A stretch of 64,000 nucleotides of DNA from Rhizophagus irregularis (GCF_026210795.1 NC_089433.1:1922001-1986000), one strand, 5' to 3'. Counted from the stretch's first letter, positions 15,499 to 61,178 are shown. Notes: a model not told the origin generated them from the sequence alone. Numbers and translations: made by a program.

Positions 15499-15548
15499 CT
15501 TTCTTCTTCAACTTTCAACTCCTTGACTGTTCTTATCATTGTGTTTTA

Positions 15549-21395: not shown

Positions 21396-21679
21396 TGGGC
21401 GCGCTATTCATTATTTCGTTAGCATAGTTGCTTTTACTTTGGTTGGAATATATCAAGGGGGAAGATCTGGGGAAATTTAGTGTAATGCGATTTTTCTTTT
21501 TTTTAGATTAATTTTTTTTACTTTATTTTTTCTTAGGAGACTATATAGCTTTGTTTTTAGTTAGTTTTATTTTTTATTTTTCCTTTTATTTTTTGTAAAT
21601 TGTAAATTTTGAATAAATTTAATAAAGATAAAGGCTACTATGCCACGTTTGCCTGGTTTTTGACTAGTGCTGATCCTAC

Positions 21680-21975: not shown

Positions 21976-22271
21976 CAGTCAACTCATTCTATAGTCACTC
22001 CCGTTATAGTCACATTCTACTATATAGTCACACCAGTTAAATGTTCAAAACACTTTATTATTAAAATCTATCCTATATAGTCACAATTTATCTATAGTCA
22101 CTATCACACCTATCCTCAAAAATCTTATATTAAAAAGAACCATTTATAATTACAGTTATATAAAGAATATATTAAATAACTTGGCATCTAATAATCGTAC
22201 AAAGATGTACCATAGCTTGTTAGAATCGTCTCACTGAAACGAATTGAATGGTGGTAGTTTTATCCTTTTAC
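21976..22271 (+). mobile_element. Left end of a putative Tc1/mariner-pogo-like non-autonomous element; hosts the LINE-B/SINE target site
   Basis: Starts TA|CAGTCAACTC with repeated ATAGTCAC motifs, then the dyad GAATCGTCTCACTGAAACGAATTGAATGG and the target TTTTATCCTTTTAC (22258-22271). No right end found. Confidence 0.5.
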
Positions 22272-24569
22272 TTTACTATGTTTACGGCCAGACCACCCAT
22301 TGCCTCTTTTTGAGACTAATCTCGGGTCTGTGTCCTATCATCTTCAATGGGCAACCATTATATCGAGTACTTAATTCCTCAGGTAACAGCACCACTATAG
22401 AAGACATCTCCCATCGGGCCACTTTAGGCTGATCTGAAGCTAGGTACACGCCGCCTACTCATCCTATACCCATTGCATGATACTGATACTCAATTTATTT
22501 TACGACCTTTAGAGAGCATCTACTTTCATGGAGGACTTTCGACAGGTAACATCAACCATCTAGTACCCTTTCATACTACCATTTTAGGTACTAAGTCTCA
22601 CTCAAAGGCCACTACAGCCCCGATTACCTAGCACCGATAGTACAGTTGTTTACCCCAAGTGGTATACTTTGTAGTAACCTAACCATGACAGGAAGTAGCA
22701 GGCATTTGTCCAGGATCACCCCTTATAGTGGGTATCAACCACCAGGGATCACTAACCAAAATCTAAAGAGTAGGAAATCAAACCCCATAACCATGCTACC
22801 TGTTCTGTGCACTGGTCAAAATCAATACTATCAGGTACATATCGGGTACCTGATATGTGTATAATATATGTGATATATGTGTATGATATTTAACAATACT
22901 ACACATATCAGGTACCCGATATGTGTAGTAGAAATGTAGAAAATCGGTGACATATACTGTAAACATCACATATACATCTTACACATATCGGGTAGTCAAA
23001 TATCGGTGACATATCTTGTAAACATCATGTATATATCTTATACATATCGGGTAGTCAAATATCGGTGACATATCTTGTAAATATCACGTATATATCTTAT
23101 ACATATCGGGTAGTCAAATATCAGTGATATATATTATAGATATCATATACTTAACACACATATATCGGGTAGTTAGCTATAAATTTCATATTAAAACTAA
23201 TAGATATATATCTTTTTTTTATTTTAATTCAGATAAAATGAAATTCAACTTTATTAAAATTTAAACAATAATACAAGTCTTACTCTATCTACTACATACG
23301 TAAAATCAAATAAAGTTGAACATTAAAAATAAATAATTATACTATGTAATATGTAAAGTTCTACTGAAAGTAGCAATGATAATAAAATTATCTGTTTAAC
23401 ATTTAAAAAAAATATTAATGAAAATATTAGTAAGTATATTAATTAATAAGAGAAATAAAAATAGAAATGTTAATAAAAACGTTAGTGGTAAAAATATAGA
23501 AAATGTTAGTAAAAATGTTAGTAGAAAGAAAGAAAAGTTAGTAAAATAGAAAATATTAATACGAGAATGTTAATAAAAACATGTTAGTAGTATTTAATAT
23601 TAATAGAAAATGTTAATAAGTGGTAAAAAACATTAGTGAGAGAAAAGAAAAAAAGTATTAGAACGTCAATAGAAAATGTATATATATAAAAGAAAAAAAC
23701 AAGCATAATGAAAATATACCTTTATGTTTATTTCTAATATAAAAATAAATAAAAAAATATAATAATATTATTATTTCATAATAACTAAGTAAAGAGTTTG
23801 TTTTAAATAAAAAGTAAAAAGTTTAAGAGAAAGGTTTTTACGAAAGGAAAAAAAAAAATAAACAAAGTGCGAAATATAAATACCGAAATCATGTGATCAA
23901 TCGCTTGATTACAACAACAAATTCTGATTGGGCCATAATTTTAACCCCGGGTTATTATAATTTATAATAGAATTACACTGCAAGTTAAACTCTTTATTGC
24001 TTTAAATTACCAATTAGTCACATATCGGGTACCTATCGGTAACCTATCATGCATATACCAGTCAACAAGTTAAATCACTGATTTTTCGTAATATCACAAT
24101 AATAAATATTAATTTAGAATCTCCTTCATCCACTCAACTTACAGTTTGTATTATTATCCAAGAATCCATGCACTGGTTGAATGATGGCATATCAGGTCAT
24201 AAGATATCATGGCATATTGGTTAAATATCAGAAACCTGATATAGCTTGATATGTAATATTAAAAATCATATACATATCAGTAACCCAATATGACAATGAT
24301 TTGTTACCATAAGAGATATCGGTATTCTAATAGGTTGTTGAAATCTATATGAAAATAATCTGATTTATAAGTTACTCTTAAGTAGCTTTAATTGATTGAT
24401 CGGCAAAGAGAAACTTTAGTTTTGGAACGGTTTAATCCATCTGAAGTATATTGTTTCATTTAATAACGGAAATACTTATTTATCATAAATATAAATATTT
24501 TTTTTTTTCCTTTTTTAGGGTAAATATTTTTATTTTTATTATTCATTTATTTGATTTTTTAACTTACAG

Positions 24570-27500
24570 TTCAGTTTTCTTGCAGGTTTCGTTCTCATTG
24601 GAAATAGATTTTGGTAAGTTTATTTTACATTTTTTCCCCTATATTTAATCCCTTTAATTTTATATTTCTTAACAAACTTTATTAATTGTTCATTATTTTC
24701 TTTCTATTTTAGGTGGATTTTCGGTCTTCTTTAGGACTTCGGAACTCGGAAGTTAACTTCCTTAACTTCAGTTGATATTAGACAAAACTTTTTGTAGATC
24801 GGTATCCTGGAATGAAACAGTAAGTTTCAGAGTATTTCATTTTACTTCAAAACTTTTTAAAATTTATCTTATCTTTATTAGTATTTTTTTTGTAGGTATC
24901 GATAGAGTGAGTTTCTTGGATCGTTTTTTTAAATTTGCTTTGAAGAAACTAATTATTTCTTCTTTTGTCAAGTTTGTAGGGTTCGTCTTCAATTATCAGG
25001 TCAGTTCTTTGGTAAGTTTTGAATTGAAACTAAAAGGAATTTTTTTTTTTTAACGAGCATTGCTAACGTTTCGTTAATATATTTTTTTTAGGTTTTGGGT
25101 TCAACTGGACTCCTTCAGTGAGTTTCTATTCGAACTTTTAGAAAAATCAAATTTCTTTTTAGCTAACATTTCATTGTTATTTTTTTTTAGGTTTCAGGTT
25201 CAACTGGATGACTGGATTCCCCTCCGTTCTTCAGTGTATTTCGTTCCAAACTAAAAAAAATTTTTTTTTAACGAAATTTCGCTAATGGTGGTAAATCCGT
25301 AATGATCATCACATTAATCTGATTTGTAATTGCCGATATCGATAATCTAATTTTAATTCTTCTTCAGTTTTATTTTTTTTTTCATTTAACTGAAAAAATT
25401 TTAGTAAATAATTGGTGAAGTTTTTTTATTTCTATTTTATTTTTATTCCTTTTATTATATTTTCTTTTTTATCTTTAGGGATATCTCTCAGACTTGGAGC
25501 TCAGCCCTTTATTTCAATTTGAGAACATTATTAACGTTCCCTTTCTTTTTTTTCTTTAGGGACAGTGAGACGCGGACTTCGGCCTCTTGGATACCGGGCT
25601 TTGGAATGGTAATTAGAATGGGAGAGGATTCTTTTTTTTTGATTTGAGAACATTACTAACGATCCCTTACTTTTTTCTTTAGGGATAGCGAGTCGTGGAA
25701 TTTGGTCTTGAATGCTGGACTTCGGAATGGTAACTAGAATAGGAGAGCAGGAAGGGGATTTTTTTGATTTGGGAACGTTACTAATATTCCGTTTCTTTTT
25801 TTCTTTTGTAGATTCCGGAACCCGTTGGACACCATTTCGAAAGGACCCCGAATAATACTAATATAACTCACAAATGATCGGCATGCATTTACTATTAACT
25901 CTACGCAACTTTTTTTTTATAGTAACGCTACGCAAATCCAAATCTTAGTTCAAAAAAATTTTTGTTACTAATATAATTCATTTCACATTTTTTCTATTAA
26001 AATATTAATAAAATCATGCAAACCTCACCATTTTATATTAAAATAGTGTAGTTCGCACTTTTTTCTATTAAAATATTAATAAAATGGTGCGAAAATCACC
26101 ATTTATTTGTTAAAATGGTGCGTTTCGCACTTTTTCTATTAAAATATTAATAATATCATGCGAAACTCACCATTTATTTGTTAAAATAGTGCGTTTCGCA
26201 CTTTTTTATAATAAAATATTAATAAAATGGTGTGAAACTCTCCATTTATTTGTCAAAATGGTGCGTTTCGCACTTTTTTATATTAAAATATTAATAAAAT
26301 GGTGCGAAACTCTCCATTTATTTGTCAAAATGGTGCGTTTCGCACTTTTTTATATTAAAATATTAATAAAATGGTGCGAAACTCCATTTTTTTGTTAAAA
26401 TGGTGCGTTTCGCACTTTTTTATATTAAAATATTAATAAAATGTGCGAAACTCCCGATTTTTTTGTTAAAATGGTGTGTTTCGCACTTTTCTATTAAATT
26501 ATTAATAAAATGGTGCATTTCGCACTTTTTCTATTAAAATATTAATAAAATGGTGCGAAACTCTCCATTTATTTGTCAAAATGGTGCGTTTCGCACTTTT
26601 TTATATTAAAATATTAATAAAATGGTGCGAAACTCCATTTTTTTTGTTAAAATGGTGCGTTTCGCACTTTTTTCTATGAAAATATTAATAAAATGGTGCG
26701 AAATTCACCATTTTTTGTTAAAGTAGTGCATTTCGCACTTTTTTTTTATTAAAAAATATTAAAATAATGCGAAATGCATTACTTTTTGTTACTATATACA
26801 ATTAATTACCAAAATCCGTAATATTGCAAATTTCATAAATATATTACGGACCCATCCTTAATGGTTTTGCGCAACTTAATTTTTATCAATATTATACAAT
26901 TGATCAACATATATTTATAAACTCTACGCAAACGTGATATGTGAGTTATCCCAAAATTGACCGATCTACGCAAACTCAATTTATGGGTTTAAAAAGTAAT
27001 TTCATATAAACTCTACGCAAACCCGTTTGTGAGTTATATCAGTATTATTCGGGGTCCTATTTCGAACCAGTAAGTAAAAAAAAAAAATACTTTAAAAAGA
27101 AGGCGTATAGATATATACTAACCTTCTATTTTCTTTTTTTTTTGTAGGTTCCGGACGCCATTTCGAACCGGTAAGTTAAAAATCGTTCTAATAGAAGGCG
27201 TATAGATATATACTAACCTTTTATTTTCTTTTTTTTGTAGATTCTGGACCCTATTCGTTCTTATTTTTTGTAGGTTCAGAATGCCGAAGATACACATTTC
27301 GAAGGTAACTTCAGTTTATTTTATTTATTTTTTTGTTATATTCAAGCGAAACGTTACTAATGCTTCGATTTTTTTTTTAGGGTTTCGGCTCTCTGGAACT
27401 CTCCTGGGCGGAATTTCGAAGGTATTTCTTTGAAATTAATTTATTTCTTTGTTTTATTTAAATGAAACGTTAACTTAAACGTTTCAATTTTCTCTTTTTA

Positions 27501-28870
27501 TAGGTCCATGGCTTCCCGAGCGGCATTTCGAAGGTAAAACTTCAAAAACTTTTATTTTTATTTTTATTCAATGAACATTAATTAACGTTCGTTCTATTTT
27601 TTGTAGGTCCAGAACACCGAAGGTATAGTGACGGACTCCACTTCGAAGGCAAAACCATCGAAGTTTTTTAATTTTATTTAATGAAACGTTGGCTAACGTT
27701 TCATTTGTGTTTTTTTTATAGGTTTTGTAGGTCCACGGCTTTCCGGACGCGAATTTTGAAGGTAAAACTTTGAAATTAAAATTTTTTTTTATTTTAATTT
27801 GATGAACGTTAACTAATGTTCGTTTTGATTTTTTGTAGGTCAAGACATTGCCGGGTTCTATTTTGAAGGTGAAAGTTCGAAATGATTTTTTTTATTTTTT
27901 AACGAACATTATACTAATGTTCATTTTTCTTTTATTTTTGTAGGTCAGGACGCTGCCAGACTCCATTTTAAAGGTATTTTCTTTGAAAGTTTTTTTTTAT
28001 TAATTTATTTAACGAATGTTAGCTAACGTTCGTTCTTATTTTTTGTAGGTCCAGAATACCGAAGGTGCGATTCTGGATCCATTTTGAAGGTAACTTCAAT
28101 TTTTTTTTTTTTTTCAGCTAAACGTTCCTAATGTTTCAGTTTTTCTTTTTTAGGTATTTGGCTCTCCGAAATTCTCCTGGATGGAATTTTGAAGTTACTT
28201 CTTTGAAATCATTTTACTTTTTATTTTATTTTGTTATATTTTAGCAAAACGTTACTAACTTTTCGTGTCTTTTTTTTTAGGATCAGGAAGTTGAAGCACT
28301 CCCATTTCGAAGGTGAAACTTTTATTTATTTTTTATGTTTTATTAATGAAATGTTTTTATTAATGAAAGGTACTAACATTTTATTTTATTCTTTTTGTGA
28401 GAACCCAGCCGTCACTACTGCCATTTCGAAGGTAAAACTTCGAAGTCTGTTGTTTTTTTTTATATTTATTTAAACGAAATGTTGACTAACATCTCGACGT
28501 TTTGTTTCCTCTTTTTGTAGGTTTTTGACTCTCTGGACGCAGAATTTCGAAGGTAATACTTCGAAATTCTTTTTTTTTACTTTCTTCTAACGAACGTTAT
28601 ACTAACATTTATTTATTTTATTTTTTAGGTTCCAGGTTCCCTTTCAAACATTTCGAAGATGACAATTCGAAATGTCATTTGTTTTATTTTGTTTTTAACG
28701 AACGTTTGCTAAAGTTCGTTTTTCTTTTCTATATGGAAACCCGGGACCTAAAAAGTAAAAGTTCGAAGGTAAAGCTTCAAGATTGAGTTTTTCTTTTTTT
28801 CTTTATTTCTCTATAACGAAACTTTATTTCTTTTGTAGGTCCTGGACACCGTTTCAAAAGAATTGAATAG
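24570..28870 (+). other. Array of micro-exon/intron modules (putative spliced transcript 1 of the CACTG element)
   Basis: Repeated pattern: CTAAC branch, polyT, TAG | ~10-50 nt GC-richer exon | GT. About 14 consecutive exons at 27273-28768 end in TT(C/T)GAAG or close variants. Confidence 0.7.
25842..27058. mobile_element. AGGACCCCG-family element (1217 bp) with internal 69-bp repeats, 8-bp TSD ATTTCGAA
   Basis: TIR AGGACCCCGAATAATACT.ATATAACTCACAAA. ATTTCGAA at 25834-25841 and 27059-27066. Confidence 0.92.
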
Positions 28871-30590
28871 TTGTTTGCTGGAATCGAACCAACTGGAACA
28901 ATGTTCCAAACCATTAACAACATAATGTAGATAGATAGATAGAATAGGATAAATGAATGTAATTTATGTATAATAATGAAATAAAAAATATACGTTTAAA
29001 TAAATAAATAAATAAATAAATAATGTATATAAAATAAATAAATAATAAGAATAATAAGAAATCAGGTTTCGATGTAGCAAATATGCAACTAATATTATAG
29101 ACAGTTCGGTAAGGATTAAGATTGCTAAAATTCTTCCGATATTCATATTACACTTACCCGATGCTGCTTGACCCAAAAGTCACATGACTTATACCTGATC
29201 TGCGCCGAGAACCGGTCACAAATCAGGTGGACTGATCAGCTCCCATTCAGGTTAAAATCGAAAACAAATAATAGGGGCTATCGGGTATATGAAATTTACC
29301 CGGTAGCCCTTCATTTAACTAGTGAAAGGTAATGAAGTATGTGGTCATTGTGGTGTGAATGGTGTTAGGAATTCCACTAATGCCATTTCTTTATCTTTTT
29401 TAGGTTTTTAAGCAGTTTTTAAACAGCTCTTAGACAAACGGCATGTAATGGAGTGTATATATATATATAGTTGAGTGTGGTATTGCTAATGGTGTTATAA
29501 AAAATAATAACTAGTAACGCCACTATTTTTTATTTTTAGGATTCTTGATAGTTCCTGGATAATCCTTCGCGGTAGGTCTTTTGGTTGGGTATTAATGGCG
29601 TTATTAAACTATATAATAATGCCTTTTTTATTTTTTTTTAGGTTTTAAGTCAGACGATTATTTGCAATAAGTTTCTTTGGGTGATTATATGGAGCGATAT
29701 TAACACCTTTTACTTCTTTCTTTTTTGATTTTTAGACGATTCGTTGATAACTGTTTATGGTAAGTCTTTCGGGTGGGTGTTAATACAGTAGTACTATTAA
29801 ACTATAATAACACCTTTTTTTTTGTTTTTAGGTTTTAAAATAGTTTCTGGATGTCTCCTTGCAGTATGTTTCTTTGAGTAGTTATGTGGTGATATTAATG
29901 GCATATTAAATCCATTTGTTTTTTTTTTCGTTAGGTTTCTGAATGGTTTTTGTGGATAAAAAACACAGATTTCTGTACTGGTAATAAGTTTCTTTTGGTT
30001 GGTATGTGAATGTTAATGACGTTAGGATGCAGTACTAACATAATTTCTTCTATTTTTTAGGTTCTTGGACAATGCTTTGAACGATTTTTGGATAAAACAT
30101 TATGGTAGGTTCTTTTGTTAATGCAATAATGGTATTATTAAACAAAGCTAACACTTTTTTTTTATTTTTTTATGTTTCTTGGATTAAAACGCGTAATGTA
30201 GATCAGACATGATCGTAATGTCAAGATCAACTAAGACGTGACATCTGATATTAGAACTTAGAAGTTGCTTGTTGGAATCGAACCAACTGGAACAATGTTC
30301 CAAACTATTAAAACATAATGTAAATAGATAGAATAGGATAAATTAATGAACAATTTAAATATAATAATGAAATAAATATATTATATGTTAAATAAATAAA
30401 TAAATAAATAAATAATAGTACATATAAATGAATAAATAATAAAAAGAAATCAGGTTTCGACATAGCAAATATACACCTGATATCATAAATAGTTCAGTAA
30501 GGATTAAGAGAAATATCGGATTGCTGAAATTCTCCCGATATTCATATAACACTTACCGTTATGTTCTGACCTGAAAGTCATATGACAAAT
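28870..30590 (+). repeat. Diverged direct repeat (~320 bp; ~28870-29195 and ~30263-30590) closing each micro-exon array; a second exon array lies between the copies (~29400-30180)
   Basis: Both copies contain TGGAATCGAACCAACTGGAACAATGTTCCAAAC, AATAAA-rich tracts and GAAATCAGGTTTCGA...GTAAGGATTAAGA. Confidence 0.8.
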
Positions 30591-31285
30591 CATTTGACCT
30601 GTGATTAGTACCTGATATATATTAGAAATATATCGGTGACATATTGGGCGATATATATCTGATTATATAGGTGCCCGAAATATACCAGTGTATATCGGTG
30701 ACATATTGGGTACCCGATGTTGTACCCGATATATGTAAATGCCCGATATATATCTGATTAGTCACCGATATATAGGTGCCTGATATATACCCGATAGCAT
30801 AGATTTTGACCAGTGGTGTACGAACACTTTGGTTGGTCTAAGACCTAACAGAAGGTCAAACTACCACTAAGACATTGCACTCTCAGCCCTCAGCTTTACC
30901 ATTTAGGACGACCATCTAGCTATTACTGACTCCAAGTGGTATCGTAGAGTGACCACCTGGACAGGAAGTCTCCCCCAAGGTATAGTAGTGACCTCAAGAA
31001 CAGGACTGCGCACATACCAATGGCCTCATAGGGAACGTTAGAAAGACACCATGACCCTTAGTTGAAATGTGCGGTCTAACCGTACACACTAATTCACCAT
31101 GATGCAGTCCAACTACACTAATCCCTGTACTTTCATGCTATTGGTTGTAGCGTCCGCAGTAAAATTCTTTTTATTTCCGTGGTCATGGGAATCGAACCTG
31201 CGACCTCACCATACTCAGGCTTAATGAGGGACTCAGTTACTATCTACCGAAATAGGGTGACCAACCTTTAGTTTTATCCTTTTAC

Positions 31286-33721
31286 TTTGCTATATTTACG
31301 GCCAGACCACCTATTGCCTCTTTTTGAGGCTAATCTCGGGTCTGTGTCCTATTATCTTCAATGGGCAACCATTATACCGAGTACTTAATTCCTCAGGTAA
31401 CAGCACCACTATAGAAGACATCCCACATCGGGCCATTTTAGGCTGATCTGAAGCTAGGTACACACCGCCTACTCATCCTATACCCATTGCATGATACTGA
31501 TACTCAATTTATTTTACGATCTTTAGAGAGCATCTACTTTCATGGAGGACTTTTGACAGGTAACATCAACCATCTAGTACTCTTCCATACCACTATTTTA
31601 GGTACTAAGTCTCACTCAAAGGCCACTACAGCTCGCGATTACCTAGTACTGATAGTACAGTTGTTTACCCCAAGTGGTATACTTTGTAGTGACCACTCAG
31701 ACAGGAAGTAGCAGGCATCTGTCCAGGATCACCCCTTATGGTGGGTATCAACCACCAGGGATCACCAACCAGGACCCAAAGAGTAGGGAATCGAACCCCA
31801 TAACCATGCTACCTGTTCTGTGCACGAACACCTTGGTTGGTCTATGACCTAACAGAAGGTCAAACTACCACTAAGACATTGCACCCTCAGCTTTACCATC
31901 TAGGACGACCATCTAGCTATTACTGACCCCAAGTGGTATCGTGGAGTGACCACAGGACCCCGAATAATACTAATATAACTCACAAATGATCGGCATGCAT
32001 TTACTATTAACTCTACACAACTTTTTTTTCATAGTAACGCTACGCAAATCCAAATCTTAGTTCAAAAAAATTTTTGTTACTAATATAATTCATTTCACAT
32101 TTTTTCTATTAAAATATTAATAAAATCATGCAAACCTCACCATTTTATATTAAAATAGTGTGTTTCACACTTTTTTCTATTAAAATATTAATAAAATGGT
32201 GCGAAAATCACCATTTATTTGTTAAAATGGTGCGTTTTGCACTTTTTCTATTAAAATATTAATAATATCATGCGAAACTCACCATTTATTTGTTAAAATA
32301 GTGCGTTTCGCACTTTTTTATATTAAAATATTAATAAAATTGTGCGAAACTCTCCATTTATTTGTCAAAATGGTGCGTTTCGCACTTTTTTATATTAAAA
32401 TATTAATAAAATGGTGCGAAACTCTCCATTTATTTGTCAAAATGGTGCGTTTCGCACTTTTTTATATTAAAATATTAATAAAATGGTGCGAAACTCTCCA
32501 TTTATTTGTTAAAATGGTGCGTTTCGCACTTTTTTATATTAAAATATTAATAAAATGGTGCGAAACTCTCCATTTATTTGTCAAAATGGTGCGTTTCGCA
32601 CTTTTTTATATTAAAATATTAATAAAATGGTGCGAAACTCTCCATTTTTTTGTTAAAATGGTGCGTTTCGCACTTTTTTATATTAAAATATTAATAAAAT
32701 GTGCGAAACTCCCAATTTTTTTGTTAAAATGGTGCGTTTCGCACTTTTTTATATTAAAATATTAATAAAATTTGCGAAACTCCCAATTTTTTTGTTAAAA
32801 TGGTGCGTTTCGCACTTTTTTATATTAAAATATTAATAAAATGGTGCGAAACTCTCCATTTATTTGTCAAAATGGTGCGTTTCGCACTTTTTTATATTAA
32901 AATATTAATAAAATGGTGCGAAACTCTCCATTTTTTTGTTAAAATGGTGCGTTTCGCACTTTTTCTATTAAAATATTAATAAAATGGTACGTTTCGCACT
33001 TTTTTATATTAAAATGTTAATAAAATGGTGCGAAATTCACCATTTTTTGTTAAAGTAGTGCATTTCGCACTTTTTTTTTATTAAAAAATATTAAAATAAT
33101 GCGAAATGCATTACTTTTTGTTACTATATACAATTAATTACCAAAATCCGTAATATTGCAAATTTCATAAATATATTACGGACCCATCCTTAATGGTTTT
33201 GTGCAACTTAATTTTATCAATATTATACAGTACAATTGATCAACATATAATGCAATATATTTAAAAACTCTACGCAAACGTGATATGTGAGTTATCCCAA
33301 AATTGACCTATCTACGCAAACTCAATTTATGGGTTTAAAAAGTAATTTCATATAAACTCTACGCAAACCCGTTTGTGAGTTATATTAGTATTATTCGGGG
33401 TCCTGTGACCACCTGGACAGGAAGTCCCCCCTAAGGTATAGTAGTGACCTCAAGGACAGGACTGCGCACATGCCAATGGCCTCATAGGGAATGTTAGAAG
33501 GACACCATGACCCTTAGTTGAAATGTGCGGCCTAACCGTACACACTAATTCACCATGATGCAGTCCAACTACACTAATCCCTGTACCTTCACGCTATTGG
33601 TTGTAGCGTCCACAGTAAAATTCTTTTTATTTCCGTGGTCATGGGAATCGAACCTGCGACCTCACCATACTCAGGCTTAATGAGGGTCTCAGTGACTAAC
33701 CACTAAGATAGGATGACCAAC
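31286..33721 (-). mobile_element. tRNA-derived SINE copy 2 (interrupted by an AGGACCCCG element)
   Basis: Same ~970-bp sequence. Two B boxes on the minus strand (31787-31797 and ~33644-33654). Target copies at 31272-31285 and 33725-33738. Confidence 0.87.
31954..33404. mobile_element. AGGACCCCG-family element (1451 bp) with expanded 69-bp repeats, 8-bp TSD GTGACCAC
   Basis: Near-identical to 25842-27058 apart from repeat number. GTGACCAC at 31946-31953 and 33405-33412. Confidence 0.92.
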
Positions 33722-33738
33722 TTGTTTTATCCTTTTAC

Positions 33739-34945: not shown

Positions 34946-34960
34946 ATTTTATCCTTTTAC

Positions 34961-36163: not shown

Positions 36164-36178
36164 ATTTTATCCTTTTAC

Positions 36179-37152: not shown

Positions 37153-37420
37153 TTATTTTATCCTTTTACTGTGCAAACAGTCTTTTGACTTTATCTTTTA
37201 TTCATATTTTAACATCGAAAATTGACGAACAATATTACAAAAATAAGAAAATAAACTAATAAAAAATAAAAAGAGTAGCTTCACGACTCATATAAGTAAA
37301 GAAATCTAAACTAAAATAAAATTAAAGCAAAGAAAAACTAAACTATTACAGAATCGCATACCCCAACTTTACCCGAAGGCCAGTGTGAGTCAACTATCCA
37401 ACGTCCAAAAATCCAGTCCG

Positions 37421-44164: not shown

Positions 44165-44700
44165 GTAAGTTTACGATTTTGTAAGTTTATGAAAGTTTAT
44201 GGCATAATATTTCGAAAAATTTCAAAATATTACGTAAGTTTACAATTTCGTAAGATTTATGTGATATTACGGTTAAAATATTACGTAAGTTTACAATATC
44301 GTAAGATTTACGCAATATTATGGTCAAAATATTCTGCAAATTTACGAAACTGTAAACCTGCGTAATATTACGGTTGAAATATTTCGAAAATTTACGAAAC
44401 TGTAAACCTGCGTAATATTACGGTTGAAATATTTTGAAAATTTACGAAACTGTAAACCTGCGTAATATTACGGTTAAAATATTTCGAAAATTTACGAGAC
44501 TGTAAACCTGCGTAATATTACGGTTGAAATATTTCGAAAATTTACGAGACTGTAAACCTGCGTAATATTACGGTTAAAATATTTCGAAAATTTACGAAAC
44601 TGTAAACCTGCGTAATATTACGGTTGAAATATTTCGAAAATTTACGAGACTGTAAACCTGCGTAATATTCCGTTTCGAAAATTTACGAGATTGTAAACTG
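44165..44700. repeat. Left subterminal array of Plavaka copy 2 (50-bp unit)
   Basis: TTTACGAAACTGTAAACCTGCGTAATATTACGGTTGAAATATTTCGAAAA recurs every 50 bp from 44341 to ~44670, with degenerate copies upstream. Confidence 0.9.
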
Positions 44701-45067
44701 CGTATGCAGTAGAACGTATACAAGGGGCATGTGATACTATTGAATAATCAAAAATAATATAAACACCTTTTCTTTTATATAAACACCTTTTTTTTAAGTT
44801 TGGGAAAGCAAATTTATTTTTATTTACGAATTTTTTATTATTTACAATTTTTATGTTAAAAATTAAAGTAAATTCTAATTTTTATTATAACTTAATAAAA
44901 AAATATACATTTGATACTTGTTCGCTACTATTTTATAAAATAGTACCCAGGCTGTACGGCGTGGACGTCAGTATCAGTCACAGCCCAAAAAAAACGTGAG
45001 TCTCCAGCCGATATTTGGTACGGACTGGGCCTAGCTACTCACTTAATAAATAAAAAAATAAAAATAA

Positions 45068-45709
45068 TTATCTTCTACGATACGTAGGTAAGTTTCTCCT
45101 TCTCCTACGATCATCACGCGTATCTAAAATTGATCAAATTTATCAAATTTAAAATGTGAACGTAAAATAGAATGTAATATTAATTATAAAATTTTATTAT
45201 AGTATAATTACCCGGCCTCTCCCAAAATCTCGTTCTAAATTCGCGATAATATCTTTGGCCGGTACGCGTCCACAGCCGCCGCCCAGGCCGATCAGGGGTA
45301 CCATTACGATAAAGGACATAGTTCTAAATATCAAAATCAGTTTGAATATTCGGTAAATACATTTAATTTAAATGAATGTAATTTTATTTATTTACTTACA
45401 TGGTAATCCCTGACGAGGTTCCTCCACTTTTGGCTGCACTGTTGCCCGGAAACCCTCGTTCGAAATATTCTATTTATTCTGATTCAATTAAATGGATTGG
45501 TTAATTTGAATTTAAATTCTTTCTTAAAGAAAATTATAGATATTAGTCATATGAACCTATTGGCAACAGAGTCCCCAAAAATCATGGCGGCTTCTACCAT
45601 TAATATTATGGTAGGCGCGGTTTCTGTCGCGGCGTATGTCGACAAGTTCGTCCATCATAGCCCAGTTCCAATGGACGTTATAGGAACGATGACGTGTTTG
45701 ACGAGGCAT
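45068..45709 (-). pseudogene. Four-exon Myb/SANT-like (trihelix-type) DNA-binding protein gene, ~132 aa, one 1-nt frameshift
   Basis: Exons 45709-45557, 45478-45400, 45323-45212 and 45123-45068, all with GT-AG introns and consistent phases. Product is MPRQ..VHWNWAMMDELVDIRR..HDFW(fs)DSVANRINRIFRTRVSGQQCSQKWRNLVRDYH..FWERPD..RRR*. Confidence 0.78.
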
Positions 45710-46220
45710 TATTAGATTTGATTTTATTTTTATAATTTGATTTTGGGATGAGTAAAAATTTGAAAGAAAGTCGTAAAATGTCACTTTAAATAAAATTTGA
45801 ACAATACCTCTTTGGTTTGATTTTATTTCTCGTTTCAATTAAAATTTAATTTATTAGACTTTTCATCATTAAACATATTAATTAAATCTCATGCGGATAT
45901 GGATTATCTAAATATAAATATCATGATTCTAAATATAGATATAAATCACTTAATTTATTTTAATTTTTTTTTAAAAAAAAATCTTAGTTTGATTTCAATT
46001 AAAAATAATTAAAAATCATGTACATGTTTTGGTTATTTAAATATAAATATCAATATATTATATTTAAAAATAAAACAATTTATTATTAGCACATTCTATT
46101 GAATTTTAAAAAAAAATCATCAATATATCATATTTAAAAATAAAACAATTATATTCTGATTAAATATTTTGCGTACATTTCTTAAAAAAATCATAAAAAA
46201 AATCTTGTACGTCGTACATG

Positions 46221-46420
46221 CAATTACTAAATATCATCCCCTTGTGATAAATAAAAAATTACGCAACACAAATTCAACACAAACTCAACACAAATTTAAC
46301 AAATTTAACGAAATTTGGCCAAAATTAACAAATTTTTTACTAGAATTATCAACACAAATTGAACACAAATTTCAGTCACGATTTATTTATGTCACGCCCG
46401 TGTTGTTAATAATTAAATAA
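46221..46420 (+). repeat. Internal inverted repeat, left arm (partner 54052-54238)
   Basis: CAATTACTAAATATCATCCCCTTGTGATAAAT...GTCACGCCCGTGTTGTTAA is the reverse complement of 54052-54238 with few differences. Confidence 0.9.
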
Positions 46421-46518
46421 ATAAATCTGCATTTTATTTATGATATGGAAAACGTGACCATAAATTCTTTTAAGGATATAATTTTATTAAAATAAATCAA
46501 AACTCCTATATCAAGTGA

Positions 46519-49500
46519 CTAAAAAATATATTTATTTACGAAATATTCATTTTGTTTATCAAATCGGGGTACTATGTGAACGACACCATGTATAGACTCT
46601 ATAGCTACAAAGTTATATAATTCTATTAATTTTAAGTGAGGACATCCATATAAATATGGGTTCCTTTTAGATTTAAAATCGTACCATTGAATTAATGCAA
46701 GATTTAGCGGTGGGTCTGTTAATACTTCTGCTAACAATAAGGCCTATAAATAATAAATATTTATTAATACTTTTATAATAAATTATTACATAAATTGGAA
46801 AAATACCTGTCCATAACAAAGTCCTTTGTCTGATATATAATCATTTGATTCTTCAGAATCCATTGAAATAGCTATGTCGCTAAACCATACTTTATTATGA
46901 TACCTGTTTGTGGCACACATTATGGCACCATTTTCCAGTGTTACCGATCTGTATATGTTTATTCGGATTTCACCAATAATTGTGAAACCATCAAGTAAAT
47001 CTAGATATGAATCCAGACAACTTATAAATCTAGCAAAACCAGTCTGCATTTTATTGTCTACGGAATCTTTTTTTTCATTAAAAAATGTATTTGCATTTTG
47101 TAAAGAGAATTCAAAGAGTCTTGCAGAAAATTTACAAGTGTGAGGTGTTTTTGCCGGATTCACTGAATGTTGAGACATTCTAATAGATATTGCTTGACGT
47201 TTTATCTATTAATTTAATTTCCATCTTAAGTTATATAATAAATATATACAATAAATAAAATTTTCAAATACTTACAGTTCGTAAAATCTGAGGTTTGACA
47301 TCTTTTTTATTGCTAATTCGGTAGGGTATTTTAACGAAATATTTGTGAAGACTTTCGTAAGTTTCTGTAGTATAGCCATTTATTACGCCATAAGATCGTA
47401 TTGAGTCAATAATATGATAAACCCATGAATGCAATTTAGGTAACTTCAAATTGGAAGGAGAAACAAATTTAAAAGCCTTGACAAACATCCGAGCCCATCT
47501 ATGTATTGCATTCTAAAACTTAAATGTTAATTTAATTTATTTAATTTAAATTTTCAATTTTACTAAAATTTTAATACATACATTAAATTTCTCCAAGTCA
47601 CTTTCACTAAATTCTTCATATCTACTTAAAATATACATTTCATTCCAATATTCGTACAATTTCGTAAGATCATCATTATTTACAAAATTATCTACTTCAT
47701 TGTTATTTTCATCATATAAATTATCAATAACAAATATCATGACTTTCATCAAACTTCGATATTCATTAGCAGTTAATCTTGCAATTGACTGCAGTCCATT
47801 GGAAAAAATTTTAATGGCGGGAAAACGTGGGATTGCTGCTAGACGGTGATCTACTTCTTCAACTAATTTATTACCATTAACATGTTGCAATTTTAAGATA
47901 TCGCACGTGAAGATAATTTGATAACGAAATAAACCTAAATCTAAATGATGCATTCTGTCAGGAACAGTAGCCAAGTAGATATTTATATTCCTTGATAATA
48001 TAAATATTTATAATTAATAGATATATATGTTATTATAATTATTTCTACTTTTGCATACTTACGGTAAATCCCAAAAAAAATTATGTACAGATTCTATGCA
48101 AACAGATCTTTGTGTATCATTTTCAAAATGTTTACGCATTTCATCATGAGTTCTTAGTATTACATCGTTAACCGATAAGTCTATATTTGCAAGATTTTCC
48201 CTTTTAACTAAACAGGAGTGACATGGAAGGTTTGAATTGGAGGATTTATAAACTAAACAAAAACTTGCGGCTTTCGGCCAATCTGCAATAATAGTTGAAA
48301 CTCTAGGATAAAACCAGGTATTTTCATTATTTATAAAAAGGTCTATACCATCTTTTAATAAAATAATAGGTTCTAGTAAATGACGTAAAGATTTATGAAA
48401 GGTATCACGAACCAGATCTTTATTTGCAGCTTCTAAAATTGGTAAATATCCCAAAAGTTGCTTTGCATCCTGTTTATTACGACGCCATATTGGGATATTA
48501 CCTAATGTAATATATATTGGATGCAATTGACTTTTTCCTAATGTATCTGTAGTTGTTGCATCTGAATATAAAATAATTGATAATAATTTGGAACCAGTAG
48601 GTAAGGATTCTTGTGTAGTTTTCCACCATTTTCCAGTGTTTTGTTCACTGTAAATACTTTCTCTATTATACTATAAAATAATATAAATAAATTAAAATAA
48701 ATATTATTTAAATTATTGAATTAACTAATATTTACTATTTACCTCATAGTTTTCGTAAGATAGCGCAAAATTTTGTGTTATGTCAGGAACAGTTAAGATA
48801 TTTTTGATGCACTGTATTAAGTTTTGATAATAAAGAAAATAATCTTTATCTTTATGTTTTGTTATAAGAACTTTACTAAATTTTAAATTAGAAAACTTCA
48901 TATTATTCATAAATGCTCGTCAGGACCCCGAAAAATACATATAAAGGTCACATGTAAGTTTGCTTAACCATATTAGTAAAATTTCCAAAAGTCATAAAAT
49001 TTTATTTGCATAGATTTTGAGATTTTTTAAAAGGTTATATATATAGTTTGCGTAATAACAATCATTTTTATATATGTCATATATTTTAATTTGTGTAGTC
49101 AACGGTATTTTTTAATAAAATATATATATATATATAATTCCAGCAGTCTTCTACTAATTAGCAGCATAACGCCTTGGAATTCCAGCAATTTTCTACTAAT
49201 TAGCAGCATAACGCCTTGAAATTCCAGCAATTTTCTACTAATTAGCAGTATAACGCCTTGGAATTCCAGCGATTTTCTACTAATTAGTAGCATAACGCCT
49301 TGGAATTCCAGCGATTTTCTACTAATTAGCAGCATAATGCCTTGGAATTCCCTAATAAGCAGCATTACGCATAGTATAATATATAAATTTTTGAAAATAC
49401 ATAATTGACAGCTAATCTGATTGATAATAGATAATTTTTTTTTCAATTTTTTGACTTTTAACAGACCGTTTTATTGAAAGAAAAAAATAAAATAATTTTT

Positions 49501-51031
49501 TTTGGTCTGTAACAAACCGTTTTATTCAATAAAATTTTTTTTTTGGCCTTTACTGTTATATTTTTTTAACAACAGGCCATTTTATTAAAAAAAAAATATT
49601 TGATTTAGAATGTTATTAATATTCCTTTTTATTATTTTTCTTTAAAAGTAACTTCTTAAATCTAAAATTTATTATTTTAGATACCAATATCTTGGAAAAA
49701 TATGAGTTAAGAGAAAAGTATAGTCAATTTTTTTGGGAATATTACCATACTAATATTCCTTTTACTTTTTTCTTAGGAACTTGGAATTTAGACTGGAACT
49801 CCAATGCTCACTGTAAGTAAAGAATTTTTTAGCTTTATTTTATTTATTTTAGAAGTATTATTAACATTTCTATTGTTTTTTCTATTAGAAATAGTTTTTA
49901 GATTAAAACTAAACTGAAATTTTTAGTAAGTTGAGAATAGGGTGGAATTTTTTTTGTTTTATATGTGAAGTAGTATTAATATTTTTTTTCTTTAGAAATA
50001 GAATCTTCTTTTAGAAATGATTTTATAAATTATATTCTAAGTTTTTGTTATAATTTATAAAAAAATAATGAACAATCTTTTTGTTTTAGTGTTAATACTT
50101 GAATTATCAAATAATTAAATATAGTAGTATAAATAAATACGTCAGTACAAATTAATTTATGCAATTTGGCATTATGCTAGCAATTGAAAATCAATTATAC
50201 TGGAAGTATATTCTAAATACAACTAATTAAATTAAAAAAAAAGCCATGATTTCATTTTTTTAATATACAAATGTCATAAAAAAAATTTGCTTATTCTAAT
50301 ATAAATTATAAAGTCAGAAGTCAACTTTGCGTATTGATCTTAGTAAAAACATTTGCTTATTTTAAAGCAAAATTTTGCCGATCATCTCTGACTTTTATAT
50401 GTATTTTTCGGGGTCCTTGCTCGTCCCTGTTCGATATTTTTTGGTAATGGTGATTCTGTAAGATTTGAATGTTTATTAAAAAAACGTATTATTTCATTAC
50501 CACCTTTATTATTTATTTTATATTTCGTTACTAATAACATTAGATTTTTATGAGCATCATTAGGAAATTCTGTGCAAGTTTTGGTATTGAGATTTTTGGG
50601 TTCTTCAAAAATTTCAGGCTCTTCAGAAATTTCAAGCTCTTCAGATGAATCTAATATATTTTCAAAGTTACTATCTTCAAGGCTCATCTCTGATATTGCA
50701 CTTCCAATACTGTCAAATGACATATTTTGTACATCATTATCATCATCCACCTAAAATTATAAACCAAATGAGTTAGTATAATTTGAGCTTTTTTCTTAAG
50801 AGCTTTAAAAAGAATAATCTGGAATAACATAATTACCTCAACTTTATCATTTTCATATTCACTACTTAGATTACTTCTTGTATCCATTTCACTGCTATAT
50901 TTTTCACTATCATTATTATCATCATCTTCTTCTACTTCTAATTCTACATTTTTTAAGCATTTTTGGGCGTGTTGAATATATGCAAAGCGTTGACTGAATA
51001 TTCGCATACAAAGGGGGCATTTAAAACTCAT
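46519..51031 (-). pseudogene. Plavaka-family transposase, multi-exon, interrupted by an AGGACCCCG element
   Basis: MSFKCPLC..HAQKC N-terminal finger, IILYSDATT, HPIYITLGNIP.WRRNK, IIADWPK, ATVPDRMHHLDLGLF, LPKLHSW, GYTTETYESLHK and terminal VNKYIF. Confidence 0.88.
48922..50417. mobile_element. AGGACCCCG-family element (1496 bp), 8-bp TSD TGCTCGTC; internal 39-bp repeats and exon/intron-like modules
   Basis: Runs AGGACCCCGAAAAATACATATAAA...TTTATATGTATTTTTCGGGGTCCT. TSD at 48914-48921 and 50418-50425. 39-bp repeats at ~49138-49365. Confidence 0.92.
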
Positions 51032-51185
51032 GTTGCTAAATTAACGCGTCAAATTTGATGAAAAGTATCAATTCACTATTCAATTTATAAGATTTTGTGT
51101 GCTAATAAAATTATATTGCAAATTTATTGTAAAAATTTAATGAATTATTGAATGGATTACAATTGATTGAGTTATTTGAATAGAT

Positions 51186-51462
51186 ACAACTACGCAAATT
51201 TACGCATTAATGAATGGAACTAAGGCTGTAGAATGCTGATGGCTAATGTCGCGAGAATAATTAGCAAATTTACGCATTATATGAAATTCAAAATATGCGA
51301 AACACTCAGCAATTTTGCTGCCAGTACAACTACGCAAATTTACGCATTAATGAATGGAACTGGCTGTAAGAATCTGGTGGCTAATGTCGCGGAATAATTC
51401 GCAAATTTACGCATTATAGCAAAATTTAAAATATGCGAAATACTCAGCAATTTTGCTGCCAG
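51186..51462. repeat. Tandem duplication (~140-bp unit) between the divergent genes of Plavaka copy 2
   Basis: TACAACTACGCAAATTTACGCATTAATGAATGGAACT...CTCAGCAATTTTGCTGCCAG occurs twice. Confidence 0.85.
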
Positions 51463-52188
51463 GAACTTGCCGAGTTCGTGGGCTGGCAAATTTTGAATTT
51501 GCTGTAACGGGCTGTAAGAATCCGGATGGCTAATACGGCTTATTCAATCGGCTAATCATCTGATAATCAGCCGCAAATTTATTGGCTTAATACATTTTAC
51601 AATAATGGACGGATGATCAGTTACAAATTTATGCGATAATCAGTTATAAGCGTTCAAGATCACTATCAATCTAATCAGCCAAATGAATTCACTCGCTGCA
51701 ACTTTTTTTTGCCATGCATACAAGCCCCAACATGTGTAACATGTTATTTTTTTATAAATGGATGTTGATTAATACTTCAATTGTACTATATGCTTTTACG
51801 AGAGTTTTTTTAAAAATTCTCTCATGAAAGTGTTACAATTTTTTTTCGTAATATCACAATGCAAAATTTTTGCATTAGTTCATTCATTTTTCGTAATATT
51901 TCGCATTAGTTCATCCATTTTTCGCAATATTTCGCAAGTTTTTTTTCTTTTTTAGTATAGAATGGCGGAAATGACGTTATGACAACTTCCTCCTTTTTCT
52001 GAACCTCTGGTTCACGTATTCCCCCTTTTTCGTATTTTTAGTTCCTCATTTTCAAATTTCTGATTCATGTCTTTCCCTTTTTCTCATATTTTTCTCCTTT
52101 CGTATTTCTAGTTCCTCTTCAAATTTCTAGTAATATCTTTTTCTCCCTTTCGAGTCTAGTTCATATCTCCTCCTACAATATTATCCCG

Positions 52189-53551
52189 ATGGCTACAAAA
52201 CGTGGTGAAAAATGAAATATTGATGATAATGAAAGAATCTCAAGACGTAATACTGAGAAGAGTAGTGAAGCCGAGAAACGAATAAGATTATCAGACGATA
52301 ATGTTGAAGGTATATATGACATGATATATATCATATTTTTTATAAGAAATTATATAATATATAGTAATTATATTTTATTGTTAAAGTTAATAAAAAAACA
52401 ATAAAAAAACTATTAAGAACCAATTCGCAGATAATTTCTAAGCTTGAAGTTCTTATTACCGGACAAAAAAATCTTGAAACCCGTCTCTCGGGTATAGAAA
52501 AAAAGCTCAACGATGATAACAAAAATAATAATACAATAGATACAGAGTATATAAAGGTAATAAAGATGAATATTATTTAATGTAAACCTGAAATGCTAAT
52601 CTCATTTGATTAGGAGCTCGTTAAGAAGGTGTCAAAAATTTTATTTGAAAATTTTGTTTATCCTTCGCAAGAAGAGTACAGACTTGCTACCGAAAAATAT
52701 TTAAAAGACGAAAATCCAGAATTTATACGCCAGTTCAAAAAAAATCAATGGATTCTTTTTTTCGAAAAAAAAATTGCCCCAACTGTAAGTTAAAGCAATT
52801 ATGAATTTTATTAAATTTCATACTAATATTTTTTTTAATAGTTAGTACAACAACATAGGAGTATAAGAGGGACGTTCACGTCCAGAGTAAAAGATGTAAT
52901 GTATTCTGTTTATGAAGTAACTGGGCATAAATTACCGTCCATTAACACTCAGGCTAGTCCGTCAAAGATTCAGGAATGGAAGAGTAAGCCGGAGGTGAAA
53001 AGATGTTACAACATCCTATTTAAAAAGGTTAAAGATGGACAACCTACGACATATATGTCGCTGATAATTGATAAGTTGCGAAAAGATAATAAAAATCCCT
53101 CAAAAACACAAATAGCGTATGCGATTAGCATATGTGAAACGTACTTAAATCCTAATAATCAAAACATTCAAATGAGTGAAAGTATAATGAAGTCGAAGAT
53201 AATCAACAACTTAGTAAGTTTTTAATTTACAATTTGCAAAATGTGAATTATTTGAATTACAGTTTATTTATTTATTTGTTGATTTTTAGCAAAAGTTGGA
53301 AAATAGGGATAAATTTATACATTCGGACGATGATTCTCATGATGGTAATGATGTAGATGATGGTGGTAATGGAGCAGCTGAAGGTGCTGCGACTAACGAT
53401 GGAGCAGATGCTGCGGTTAACGATGGAACAGGTGCTGCGGTTAACGATGGAACAGGTGCTGCGACTAACGATGGAGCAGGTGCTGCGGTTAATGATGGCA
53501 TAGCTGACGATGATATACTTTCTAGTGACTCTTATAATACAGAGGAGGAAG
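52189..53551 (+). pseudogene. Plavaka accessory gene copy 2, multi-exon, early TGA; C-terminal (NDGxGAA)n acidic repeats
   Basis: ATG at 52189, TGA at 52213, GT-AG introns, ORF pieces 52899-53225 and 53296-. Homologous to 6246-7600. The 3' end is uncertain. Confidence 0.68.
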
Positions 53552-53593
53552 GTCGGTATGTAGATAGTTTATTAGAGAATTATGGGTTGCATA

Positions 53594-53957
53594 CTTTACT
53601 AAAAATGGCCAATTTTTTGAAATGATTTTGTAATAATTTTAAAATACTACAAAAATACATTTAATACATCAAAATGTTTTTATTATATTTTTGCTATTAT
53701 TTTGTAATTATATTATATCTAGGTCTATAAAAATAACTTAAAATAATATCACAATAATTTTTTAATGTTTTTGTTATTATTTTATTATTATAATATAATT
53801 AACTTTAATATTATTTTAATATTTTAATCTCAAAAAATACCTCAAATATATCTTGATATATTTTAAAAATTTTACAAAATAATTGCACAATTGTTTTGAA
53901 AGTTATTGTATCTAGATCTATAAAAATATTTCAAAAAATTGGCCATTTTTAGTAAAG
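53594..53957. mobile_element. MITE (~364 bp) with ~30-bp TIR, flanked by TA
   Basis: TA|CTTTACTAAAAATGGCCAATTTTTTGAAAT ... ATTTCAAAAAATTGGCCATTTTTAGTAAAG|TA. Confidence 0.8.
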
Positions 53958-54051
53958 TAGGAAATAAAAGAAATAAATATTATTTTTTATATATATCACA
54001 CGTAATAGCATTTTTTTTACTATAATAATATAGTTTTAATAAATAAAATGG

Positions 54052-54238
54052 TTATTAATTCTTAACAATACGGGTGTGACATAAATAAATCGTGGCTGAA
54101 ATTTGTGTTCAATTTGTGTTGATAATTCTGGTAAAAAATTTGTTAATTTTGGCCAAATTTCGTTAAATTTGTTAAATTTGTGTTGAATTTGTGTTGATAA
54201 TTTTTAATTTATCACGAGGGGATGATATTTAGTAATTG
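54052..54238 (-). repeat. Internal inverted repeat, right arm (partner 46221-46420)
   Basis: Reverse complement of 46221-46420. Confidence 0.9.
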
Positions 54239-55079
54239 TTTTTCTGGCCAATCAAAATTAGGCTGATCCTTGCATGTGATTTAATCATTTAATCATGCAC
54301 GCGTTTTTTGTCTTATTTATTTTTGTCTCTTATTTCTTTATTCTTTTGTTCAATATTTTTAATTTTTTTGTCTCTTCTTTCTATTATTTCTTTAATTATA
54401 TACAAACAATATATTTACATATATTTCATAATTTATTGTTTTGCAGGTATAGAAATATTTGTTTATTAATACTAATTATTTTCATTTTTTTTTACCTCTT
54501 TGTTACTTTGTATCGTAATACTAACAATAATATCCATGTTTTCTTTATTCCTTTTTACTTGTACTTTAATACTAACGATACTAACAATACTAACAACATG
54601 TTTATTTTTTTTTCTCTTTATTTCTTTATTCTTTTGTTCAATTACTTTGCAGGTATAGAAATATTTATTTATTAATACTAATTATTTTAATATTAACGCG
54701 TTTTTTTTACCTCTTTGTTACTTTATGTCGTAATACTAACAATACTATCTACGTTTCCTTTATTCCTTTTTACTTGTACTTTAATACTAACGATAATATC
54801 CATGTTTCTTTTACTCCTTTTACTGTTTCTTTAACTCTTTTTACCTTAATACTAACAATATTTCTTTTATCTTTATATCTAATACTAACGTTACTATAGC
54901 TGTTTCTCTTCTTTTTACGTCTAATAATATTGTTACTCTTTACTCTTTCTTTTTTTTACTTTTATGTATTCTGTATATTAATAAATACTTGTAATTTTTT
55001 ATGGTTTAATAAAATTATATCTAATAAAACATACATTATATAAACTTATAGTACAGAAAATGAAGTATTATTTTTGAAA

Positions 55080-55500
55080 CATTACGAAATATTAAGTTGT
55101 GTAAAATCACAGAATATTACGAATCGTCAAATTATAGAGCATTACGCATCATAGAATTTCGAAATATTTTAAAAAGTTGCGAAGTATTACGCAGTAAAAT
55201 TACGGAATATTACGAATCGTAAAATTACGAAGCCTTGCATATAGTAATATTTCGAAATATTTTAAAAAGTTACAAAATATTACACTTACGCAAACTTGCG
55301 GCGGGTCTGAAAACTTACGAAATATTATGTAAAATTACGAAATATTGCGAACTGCAAAATTACGGAATATTACAAATCGTAAAATTACGAAGCTTTGCAT
55401 ATCGTAATATTTCGAAATATTTTAAAAAGTTACGAAATATTACGCTTACGCAAACTTGCGGCGGGTCTGAAAGCTTACGAAATATTATGATGTGTAAACT
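55080..55500. repeat. Right subterminal repeats of Plavaka copy 2
   Basis: Repeated ATTACGAA/AATATTACG/TTTCGAAATATTTT motifs. CTTACGCAAACTTGCGGCGGGTCTGAAA occurs twice. Confidence 0.8.
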
Positions 55501-56422
55501 TGCGCAACTTTTCGCACTATATAATTTCCTGATGGAAAGAAGGTGCCACGCAAAAGCGCGTCAGTAATGAAAAGGGGAATATCAGTAACCACCAGGGTAC
55601 GTGCGTGTTCGTCTGCCTTAATAGCCTTGGGGTCATATGCATGGAAATGTAAGCTGAACAAAGAATCCATAGGGGAAGCTGTGGCTTTGTCAAGATCTTC
55701 CTTTTTCCGGAAGTGTACGATGATCCTCTTCAAATCGTTGGATCCACTACATGTGGCACGACTACCATAAGAGGAGAACAAGGAAAGTTATCAATCAACC
55801 GCGTTGCACGCGTCACGGTTCGAAGCGAAGTGAGTCCAAAAGCCTTCGACGTCATTAGGAGCGGCCGAGGCGTAATAGAGTGTAGGTTGAGATTGTACTG
55901 CAGCTTGGGACGCGTCCAGGAAGGCAGCACGTTCTGGGAAGGAGACTACAGGAGTAATTTCTGGGCTTTTGCCTTTATCATTATTATTAGCAGGGGCGTG
56001 TTGAGAAGCGTCAAGAGAAGAGGTATCAGGTTGAGAAGGTATCTCAGCGGAAGTTGTCTCAACAGGGCCAGGAGGCGTGAGAGGTTTATCAACATTCATG
56101 ACAGAGTCGTCAGCACTGACTCTGGTACGTTTATTAGTAGAGGTGGTCGAAAGTGGAGTGTTCAAAGTGTCAGGTAAAGCGGAACCTTGACCAGAAACGT
56201 TGCCGGCTGGAGAGCTAGAGGCAGGACGTTTAGAAGTAGTATCTTTGTTAGACTTGTTATTTTGTTTCTTGTTATCTTTAGCCATGTCGTAGAGTGTCGT
56301 AGTTATCTAAAATAAAGAAAATATAAAGAAAAAGTAATAAAAAACTTCGAAAAAATTTTTTATTTTTTCCGTAAATATTGTCAAGTGAGCAGAACGGGAG
56401 AGAGTTCCGTTTTATCCTTTTA

Positions 56423-56461
56423 CGATCATTTGTGAGTTATATTAGTATTATTCGGGGTCCT
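56423..56461 (-). mobile_element. Orphan terminus of an AGGACCCCG-family element
   Basis: CGATCATTTGTGAGTTATATTAGTATTATTCGGGGTCCT is the reverse complement of the first 39 bp of 25842 and 31954. Confidence 0.85.
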
Positions 56462-61146: not shown

Positions 61147-61178
61147 ACTAATCAAAAACCACTGCTAGTTAAAAACCA

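Follow-up and report, generated by a model that had tools for sequence, protein, structure and literature searches.

The stack of repeats at the locus

The window analyzed here, a 64-kb stretch of the Rhizophagus irregularis genome, contains a stack of repeats in which neighboring elements are separated by copies of one 14-mer, TTTTATCCTTTTAC, hereafter called M. Exact copies of M were found on the plus strand at 22258, 31272, 33725, 34947, 36165, 37156 and 56410, and none on the minus strand of the window. An order-2 Markov model predicts 0.007 copies per window, and allowing up to two mismatches added a single, unrelated match at 54810. The initial annotation had placed seven exact 14-mers at these positions, and this was borne out. 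The features are:

2555..3093, no strand assigned: palindromic MITE; its two arms are uninterrupted homologues of the putative target module (15/19 and 16/19 to M+GATCA)
21976..22257, plus strand: left flank; end of a repeat starting with TA and then CAGTCAAC; its last ~80 bp are a quasi-palindromic module and the likely left part of the target
22258..22271, plus strand: M copy 1, on the target side, continuous with the module arm
22272..31271, minus strand: SINE S1, split by a ~8-kb nested DNA transposon with CACTGG ends (22810-30815), itself with further repeats
31272..31285, plus strand: M copy 2, preceded by TAG, the same three bases as in the left flank of the target
31286..33724, minus strand: SINE S2, split by a MITE with AGGACCCC TIRs (31954-33404) and an 8-bp TSD
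33725..33738, plus strand: M copy 3, preceded by G
33739..34946, minus strand: SINE S3, with a 5' truncation of ~16 nt, a 45-nt deletion and a palindromic MITE (34080-34357); duplicate or hybrid of S4
34947..34960, plus strand: M copy 4, exact motif
34961..36164, minus strand: SINE S4, with 5' start, deletion and MITE (35303-35581) as in S3
36165..36178, plus strand: M copy 5, exact motif
36179..37155, minus strand: SINE S5, uninterrupted, 977 nt
37156..37169, plus strand: M copy 6, between the 3' end of LINE B and the 5' end of S5
37170..56409, minus strand: LINE B, decayed, with ORF1 and ORF2 (APE, RT and RNase H region); 7,835 bp when its insert is left out
44136..55540, no strand assigned: nested DNA-transposon insert of 11.4 kb in LINE B ORF1, with CATCAGG ends and Plavaka transposase remnants
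56410..56423, plus strand: M copy 7, at the 5' end of LINE B, preceded by G
56424..56461, plus strand: right flank; GATCA(TT), from the module arm, and overlapping it the 38-bp truncated end of a MITE with AGGACCCC

The five related repeats S1 to S5 are 923-993 nt long when M and the nested inserts are set aside, and share 92.5-96.6% pairwise identity. Their bodies contain no ORF of 150 aa or more, and nested DNA transposons interrupt 4 of the 5. All lie on the minus strand. As the initial annotation had described, the 3' ends abut M precisely and without poly(A), and the 5' junctions vary; G or AG stands directly before M at three of the six 5' junctions in the window.

S3 and S4 begin at the same 5' position, lack the same 45 nt and carry one and the same MITE, 274/277 identical and inserted at an identical base; they are therefore not independent insertions. 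The 3' third of S3 is 96.6% identical to S1, compared with 94.9% to S4. The two copies are one insertion followed by duplication or unequal crossover, so that recombination has also lengthened the stack and there were at most four SINE events. The earlier picture of five SINEs and one LINE B on the minus strand between the motifs stands, with the corrections that one of the five SINEs arose by duplication and that LINE B is dead.

The head of S5 carries a T-arm/B-box-like motif, GGTTCGATTCC, and a second such box is found internally. This 11-13-nt T-arm match is the only similarity of the SINE head to a tRNA: ARAGORN and Rfam (at gathering score) gave no tRNA gene in the head, and folding gave no cloverleaf. 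The reading as A and B boxes, and with it the label “tRNA-derived”, is tentative.

LINE B is full-length and carries in-frame stops, a frameshift and the DNA-transposon insert in ORF1; due to the stops and the frameshift this copy is dead. The APE domain of ORF2 lies at 41914-42864 (Exo_endo_phos, E 3.4e-9), the RT is matched by RVT_1 in two pieces that are each under the curated cut-off, and RNase H (PF00075) is found in close relatives of the C-terminal region. Tx1-clade ORF2 proteins are not known to carry RNase H, and because of the RNase H in these relatives we do not assign LINE B to Tx1. ORF1 aligns to the RRM-bearing ORF1 of a second LINE family in the window, LINE A, and is thus RRM-like by homology; no Pfam zinc finger was found in the LINE B ORF1 pieces. 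The 3' end of LINE B has no poly(A). At the other end, LINE A and LINE B share the opening sequence AACTCTCTCC, evidence that 56409 is close to the real 5' end of LINE B. This sequence, found at the starts of LINE A (13250) and LINE B (56405), might also be a conserved internal initiator.

Relatives of LINE B are many and diverged (43-88% identity in the C-terminal region). Rhizophagus irregularis is the named source of 64 of the 67 relatives of the endonuclease and of 119 of the 120 listed relatives of the C-terminal region. Among solved structures, the APE profile comes nearest to the L1-endonuclease-like chain 2v0s, a weak match (E 4e-5), and a single-sequence AlphaFold model of this domain had a pLDDT of 36 and was unusable. 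At the APE position (41914-42864) that matches the catalytic Glu of L1 (QET), the LINE B family reads NDT or NNT and LINE A reads VDT, i.e., Asp for Glu. With the LINE A RT as query, the R2 and L1 RTs in the PDB scored alike (57-69 bits).

LINE A (10105-21670 and 56462-64000) has 49% RT identity to LINE B. Its copies, too, lie head to tail, with TAG repeats at the joints (13234-13250, and a similar one at ~61165), and the family may target or end in (TAG)n. An inverted duplication of LINE A (10216-17748 against 64000-56462, 88-96%) has its edge exactly at the truncated AGGACCCC MITE end at 56461, which suggests a transposon-mediated rearrangement. Four MITEs with AGGACCCC TIRs and 8-bp TSDs belong to two subfamilies (21127-21349, 25842-27058, 31954-33404 and 48922-50417), and two of the four contain 72-bp tandem arrays. 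Two decayed Plavaka transposase elements (550-3538 and 46520-48914) are 67-69% alike, and one of them is nested in the LINE B insert. A 51-bp tandem array of ~37 copies at 8125-10092 gives long spurious ORFs, and related 50-bp arrays are found at 44155-44704 and 55072-55489. In the gene model P0100, a helix-turn-helix transposase-like N-terminus is fused to a LINE B RNase H, perhaps the trace of a LINE B copy that inserted into an autonomous DNA transposon.

The probable target module and junctions at other loci

The repeat that ends in the left flank begins with what we take to be a Tc1/mariner-like terminus. Left-flank sequence is also found at another R. irregularis locus, P0068, with 94-96% identity; a short peptide search of the flank returned P0068 only, which stops before M. 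The last 80 bp of the flank match both arms of the MITE at 2555-3093 (71-73%) and a metagenome contig pair, L001/L002. Matches to M+GATCA of at least 14/19 occur six times in L001, where shuffled sequence gives a mean of 0.2, and twice in the window MITE, where it gives 0.05. Across the six uninterrupted module arms listed, the distance from AATG to GATCA (GATTA in one) is 25 nt, and joining the left flank, one M and the right flank gives the same arm spacing. In addition, one of the 17 matches of the translated-module search, P0198, reads NDRKRMKLPP and MVVVSSFYGH over the junction in two frames, with 9/10 and 8/10 agreement to the peptides inferred from the window. The restored 25-nt spacing, as in an uninterrupted module, suggests that M is likely part of a pre-existing target module and a target-site duplication rather than an element tail.

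The initial annotation had named, as a case against its reading, other copies with the 14-mer only on the 3' side; in the window, M is also found at the 5' end of LINE B and is followed there by GATCA. The empty site it had proposed to look for was not found as exact DNA. Target patterns gave no matches in genome and viral contigs, and in metagenome contigs they gave two overlapping loci (L001/L002) in which the module is present and M is absent in that arm. Immediately behind GGTAGTTT these contigs part from the window sequence, and the arm that comes after GGTAG differs from M. M-like arms are present in them behind a different 11-mer, AATGAGCTA, and not behind AATGGTGGTAG.

On the right side, the flank keeps only about 8 nt of the target before the truncated MITE end, and the remaining target was likely lost by microhomology deletion or rearrangement. 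The right flank was also considered as a whole host transposon; this was rejected, the flank being a 38-bp truncated MITE end.

The module itself is ~70-100 bp long, has a core of inverted repeats on either side of a 5-6-nt spacer, and forms alternating arrays (L001:500-1417; window 2690-2950 and 22177-22271). This quasi-palindromic module is not confined to one DNA-transposon family, and many spurious protein predictions (P0194-P0210) arise from it. The layout is reminiscent of a recombinase or transposase site.

For junctions outside the window, we compared the stretch 36100-37235, in which LINE B is represented by its final 66 nt, with the contig sets of runs X2, X6 and X9 and with one RNA run, X24 (4 of 24 runs). 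The SINE is short, non-coding and multicopy, with 5'-truncated copies (1,624-5,132 contig records per run on this stretch, with truncation joints; summed contig depth is not taken as copy number). At least eight distinct joints in X2, X6 and X9 have 5'-truncated or full SINEs or LINEs abutting M or its TTTTCC variant; five come from one set of 15 joints, of which the remaining ten are internal deletions or contain unknown letters, and three from another. Among the contig joints listed, SINEs cut at 36369 (three runs), 36492, 36625 and 37085 run into M and the 3' end of LINE B, SINEs ending at 36460, 37153 and 37159 run into M (or TTTTCC) and the 3' end of another SINE, and a LINE cut at 37209 runs into M and a LINE 3' end. 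G or AG precedes M, as in the target flank, in 5 of the 6 listed M joints with printed letters. The same arrangement is seen in 2 of 188 gene models, P0142 (EXX58266.1) and P0103 (PKK60606.1), which read from a SINE 3' end through M into LINE B with different internal LINE B starts; both are predictions and could be spliced. The SINE 3' pattern gave no matches in viral and metagenome contigs.

Across loci there are thus independent insertions that agree in their 3' junction and differ in how far the 5' end is truncated. The claim of repeated LINE B and SINE insertion at one 14-bp site extends to other loci through the contig joints, P0142 and P0103, and the specificity might be only a preference. 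Loci differ in the final two bases of M: CC accounts for 62-83% of contig depth at 37168, compared with AC in all seven window copies, which fits M having been copied from the local target. RNA depth in X24 fell from 60 reads at 37185 to 35 at 37168, a drop that may reflect copies lacking M. For loose ends, the comparison covered 18 of 550 rows. As the X24 reads show no pile-up of ends and lie in both orientations, they do not define transcript ends.

Proposed mechanism and alternative explanations

We consider it probable that the stack consists of non-LTR insertions at one reused site, where an APE-RT-RNase H LINE family likely inserts itself and, in trans, the ~1-kb SINE. The insertion point would be a fixed position in the quasi-palindromic module carried by DNA transposons, with 14-17 bp duplicated each time. 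The ORF2 protein would make the first nick on the plus strand right after M (TTTTAC^GATCA), priming reverse transcription of LINE or SINE RNA, and a second nick, 14-17 nt further left, would cut the opposite strand. The module core and M would then be regenerated on the left, and GATCA would be dispensable after the first insertion. Since the left part of the site is regenerated, later elements would land between M and the 3' end of the prior element, and the stack would grow leftwards.

The precise 3' ends may be explained by pairing of SINE RNA, read through M, with the nicked target. The sense strand of the SINE contains no T5 run, and the first lies 136 nt beyond the 3' end of S1. Lacking this terminator, SINE transcripts would read through M, and such pairing would give precise 3' ends without poly(A) or a common tail. 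Read-through RNA pairs with the target in R1 and SART1, whose targets are rDNA or telomeric repeats. A bolder reading, to which we give slightly less than even chances, is that a fungal RNase H-bearing LINE lineage independently evolved a sequence-specific APE for a module found in several families of DNA transposon, and that read-through RNA pairing brings a tail-less SINE of ~1 kb to the identical base. This would be the first base-precise fungal LINE/SINE pair, with strain-polymorphic stacks at one safe-haven site.

The same pairing could also act without any sequence-specific endonuclease, so that the apparent targeting is a preference arising from read-through M at T-rich, L1-type TTTT/A nicks and from the abundance of the module. 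M contains TTTTA, the APE profile is closest, if weakly, to the L1-endonuclease-like 2v0s, and both the missing T5 run and the variable last two bases of M agree with this explanation. We regard it as unlikely, with some weight left to it: TTTTA is abundant in the window, which is 66% AT, yet every SINE and LINE B end (6/6 elements) is at M, and independent truncated copies elsewhere hit the same base.

A different question is whether LINE B is the partner. Mobilization of the SINE by another LINE family with the same target, either LINE A or an unseen relative, would agree with the lack of tail homology between SINE and LINE B and with the many diverged LINE B relatives. We find this improbable, as LINE A 3' ends are in TAG repeats and not at M in all three cases in the window, and LINE B is found at M both here and at two other loci.

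If M were instead a 3' tail common to LINE B and the SINE, stacks could form through template jumping, or through insertions behind tails already in place, with no prior target. M does follow the 3' end of every element, 12 X6 contigs (among the matches listed) contain the LINE B 3' end and M and then diverge, and the exact empty site was not found in DNA. This account is very improbable given that M also lies at the 5' end of LINE B, followed by the GATCA of the module, that the 25-nt arm spacing is restored and module-like peptides bridge the junction, and that the minority AC ending is common to all seven local copies. Nor was a 3' tail common to SINE and LINE B found; the best match was 11 nt (E 0.35), and there is no similarity upstream of M.

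A single insertion followed only by local tandem duplication, or by unequal crossing-over between the 14-bp repeats, would fit the truncation, deletion and MITE common to S3 and S4 and the S1-like 3' third of S3, as in a crossover hybrid, and is barely credible for the stack as a whole, where S1, S2, S5 and S3/S4 differ in 5' junctions and nested inserts, as it cannot put a LINE and a SINE at one site or explain variably truncated copies at M elsewhere.

Comparison with known systems and implications

The preferred reading, repeated insertion of LINE B and the SINE at one reused site, has a close published precedent. In crocodilians, SINEU-3 and Tx1-Mar share a site in Mariner-N4_AMi, with a 16-bp TSD and tandem SINEs that sandwich the TSD, according to the accessible text of the report (Kojima, 2015; PMC4494074). 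The 5'-truncated copies also lie on the target there, the partnership was inferred from the common target, and elements were called target-specific when >20% of copies were flanked by the target (PMC4494074). Due to this precedent, the locus is not a new kind of system; by analogy, it is likely a fungal case of the LINE/SINE target sharing known from crocodilians. Both systems have a LINE and a SINE at one site, here probably in a DNA transposon, a similar TSD (~16 bp there and 14-17 bp proposed here), tandem SINEs around the TSD, which is putative here, 5'-truncated copies at the site, and a partnership deduced from the common target. Unlike the crocodilian system, the present one has a fungal host and a SINE of ~1 kb that carries a tRNA-like box where the crocodilian SINE has a U1/U2 head. 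LINE B also differs from Tx1-Mar in its RNase H, and its putative target is a quasi-palindromic module of more than one transposon family.

Xenopus Tx1L, which inserts in the non-autonomous piggyBac element Tx1D (PMC4494074, accessible text), resembles LINE B as an APE-type LINE inserted into a DNA transposon. It differs in belonging to the animal Tx1 clade, in its piggyBac target and in that this account of Tx1L mentions no partner SINE. Among fungi, Grem-LINE1 of Mucoromycotina is described, in the part of the preprint consulted, as a two-ORF APE-RT LINE that has a zinc finger in ORF1, ends with a poly(A) signal and is targeted to pericentromeric regions (bioRxiv 10.1101/706580). Grem-LINE1 and LINE B are both two-ORF APE-RT LINEs of early-diverging fungi clustered in repeat-rich regions. 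In contrast to Grem-LINE1, LINE B has an RRM-like ORF1, RNase H and no poly(A), and a base-precise site instead of regional targeting.

The curated TE library of R. irregularis includes SINE, L1-Tx1, L1-R1 and I families, as given in the main text (Oliveira et al., 2024; PMC11075540), and LINE B and the SINE may be among the families of this library. The accessible text of the AMF TE surveys contains no discussion of targeting (PMC11075540 and PMC11952901), and the word “target” occurs 0 times in the main text of the former. In the same way, the accessible parts of the Glomhopper paper do not describe the module (PMC13465315), and those of PMC11952901 and PMC3747384 contain no fungal target-specific LINE/SINE pair. 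Our literature search found no base-precise fungal LINE/SINE pair; Repbase, subscription journals and survey supplements lay outside this search and might already contain the elements.

The logic of parasites hiding in another transposon, with tandem SINEs around a TSD, has already been published for crocodilians, which limits the surprise. Should the specificity prove real, the known range of APE retrotransposition that is sequence-specific and has a partner SINE would widen from animals to fungi, in a LINE of different architecture. LINE B would then provide a new endonuclease for asking how APE domains gain specificity, and the SINE a test case for targeting without a common tail. Under the same premise, repeated insertion at this site would explain part of the nested repeat structure in an important plant symbiont, and the length of the stack would be usable as a strain marker.
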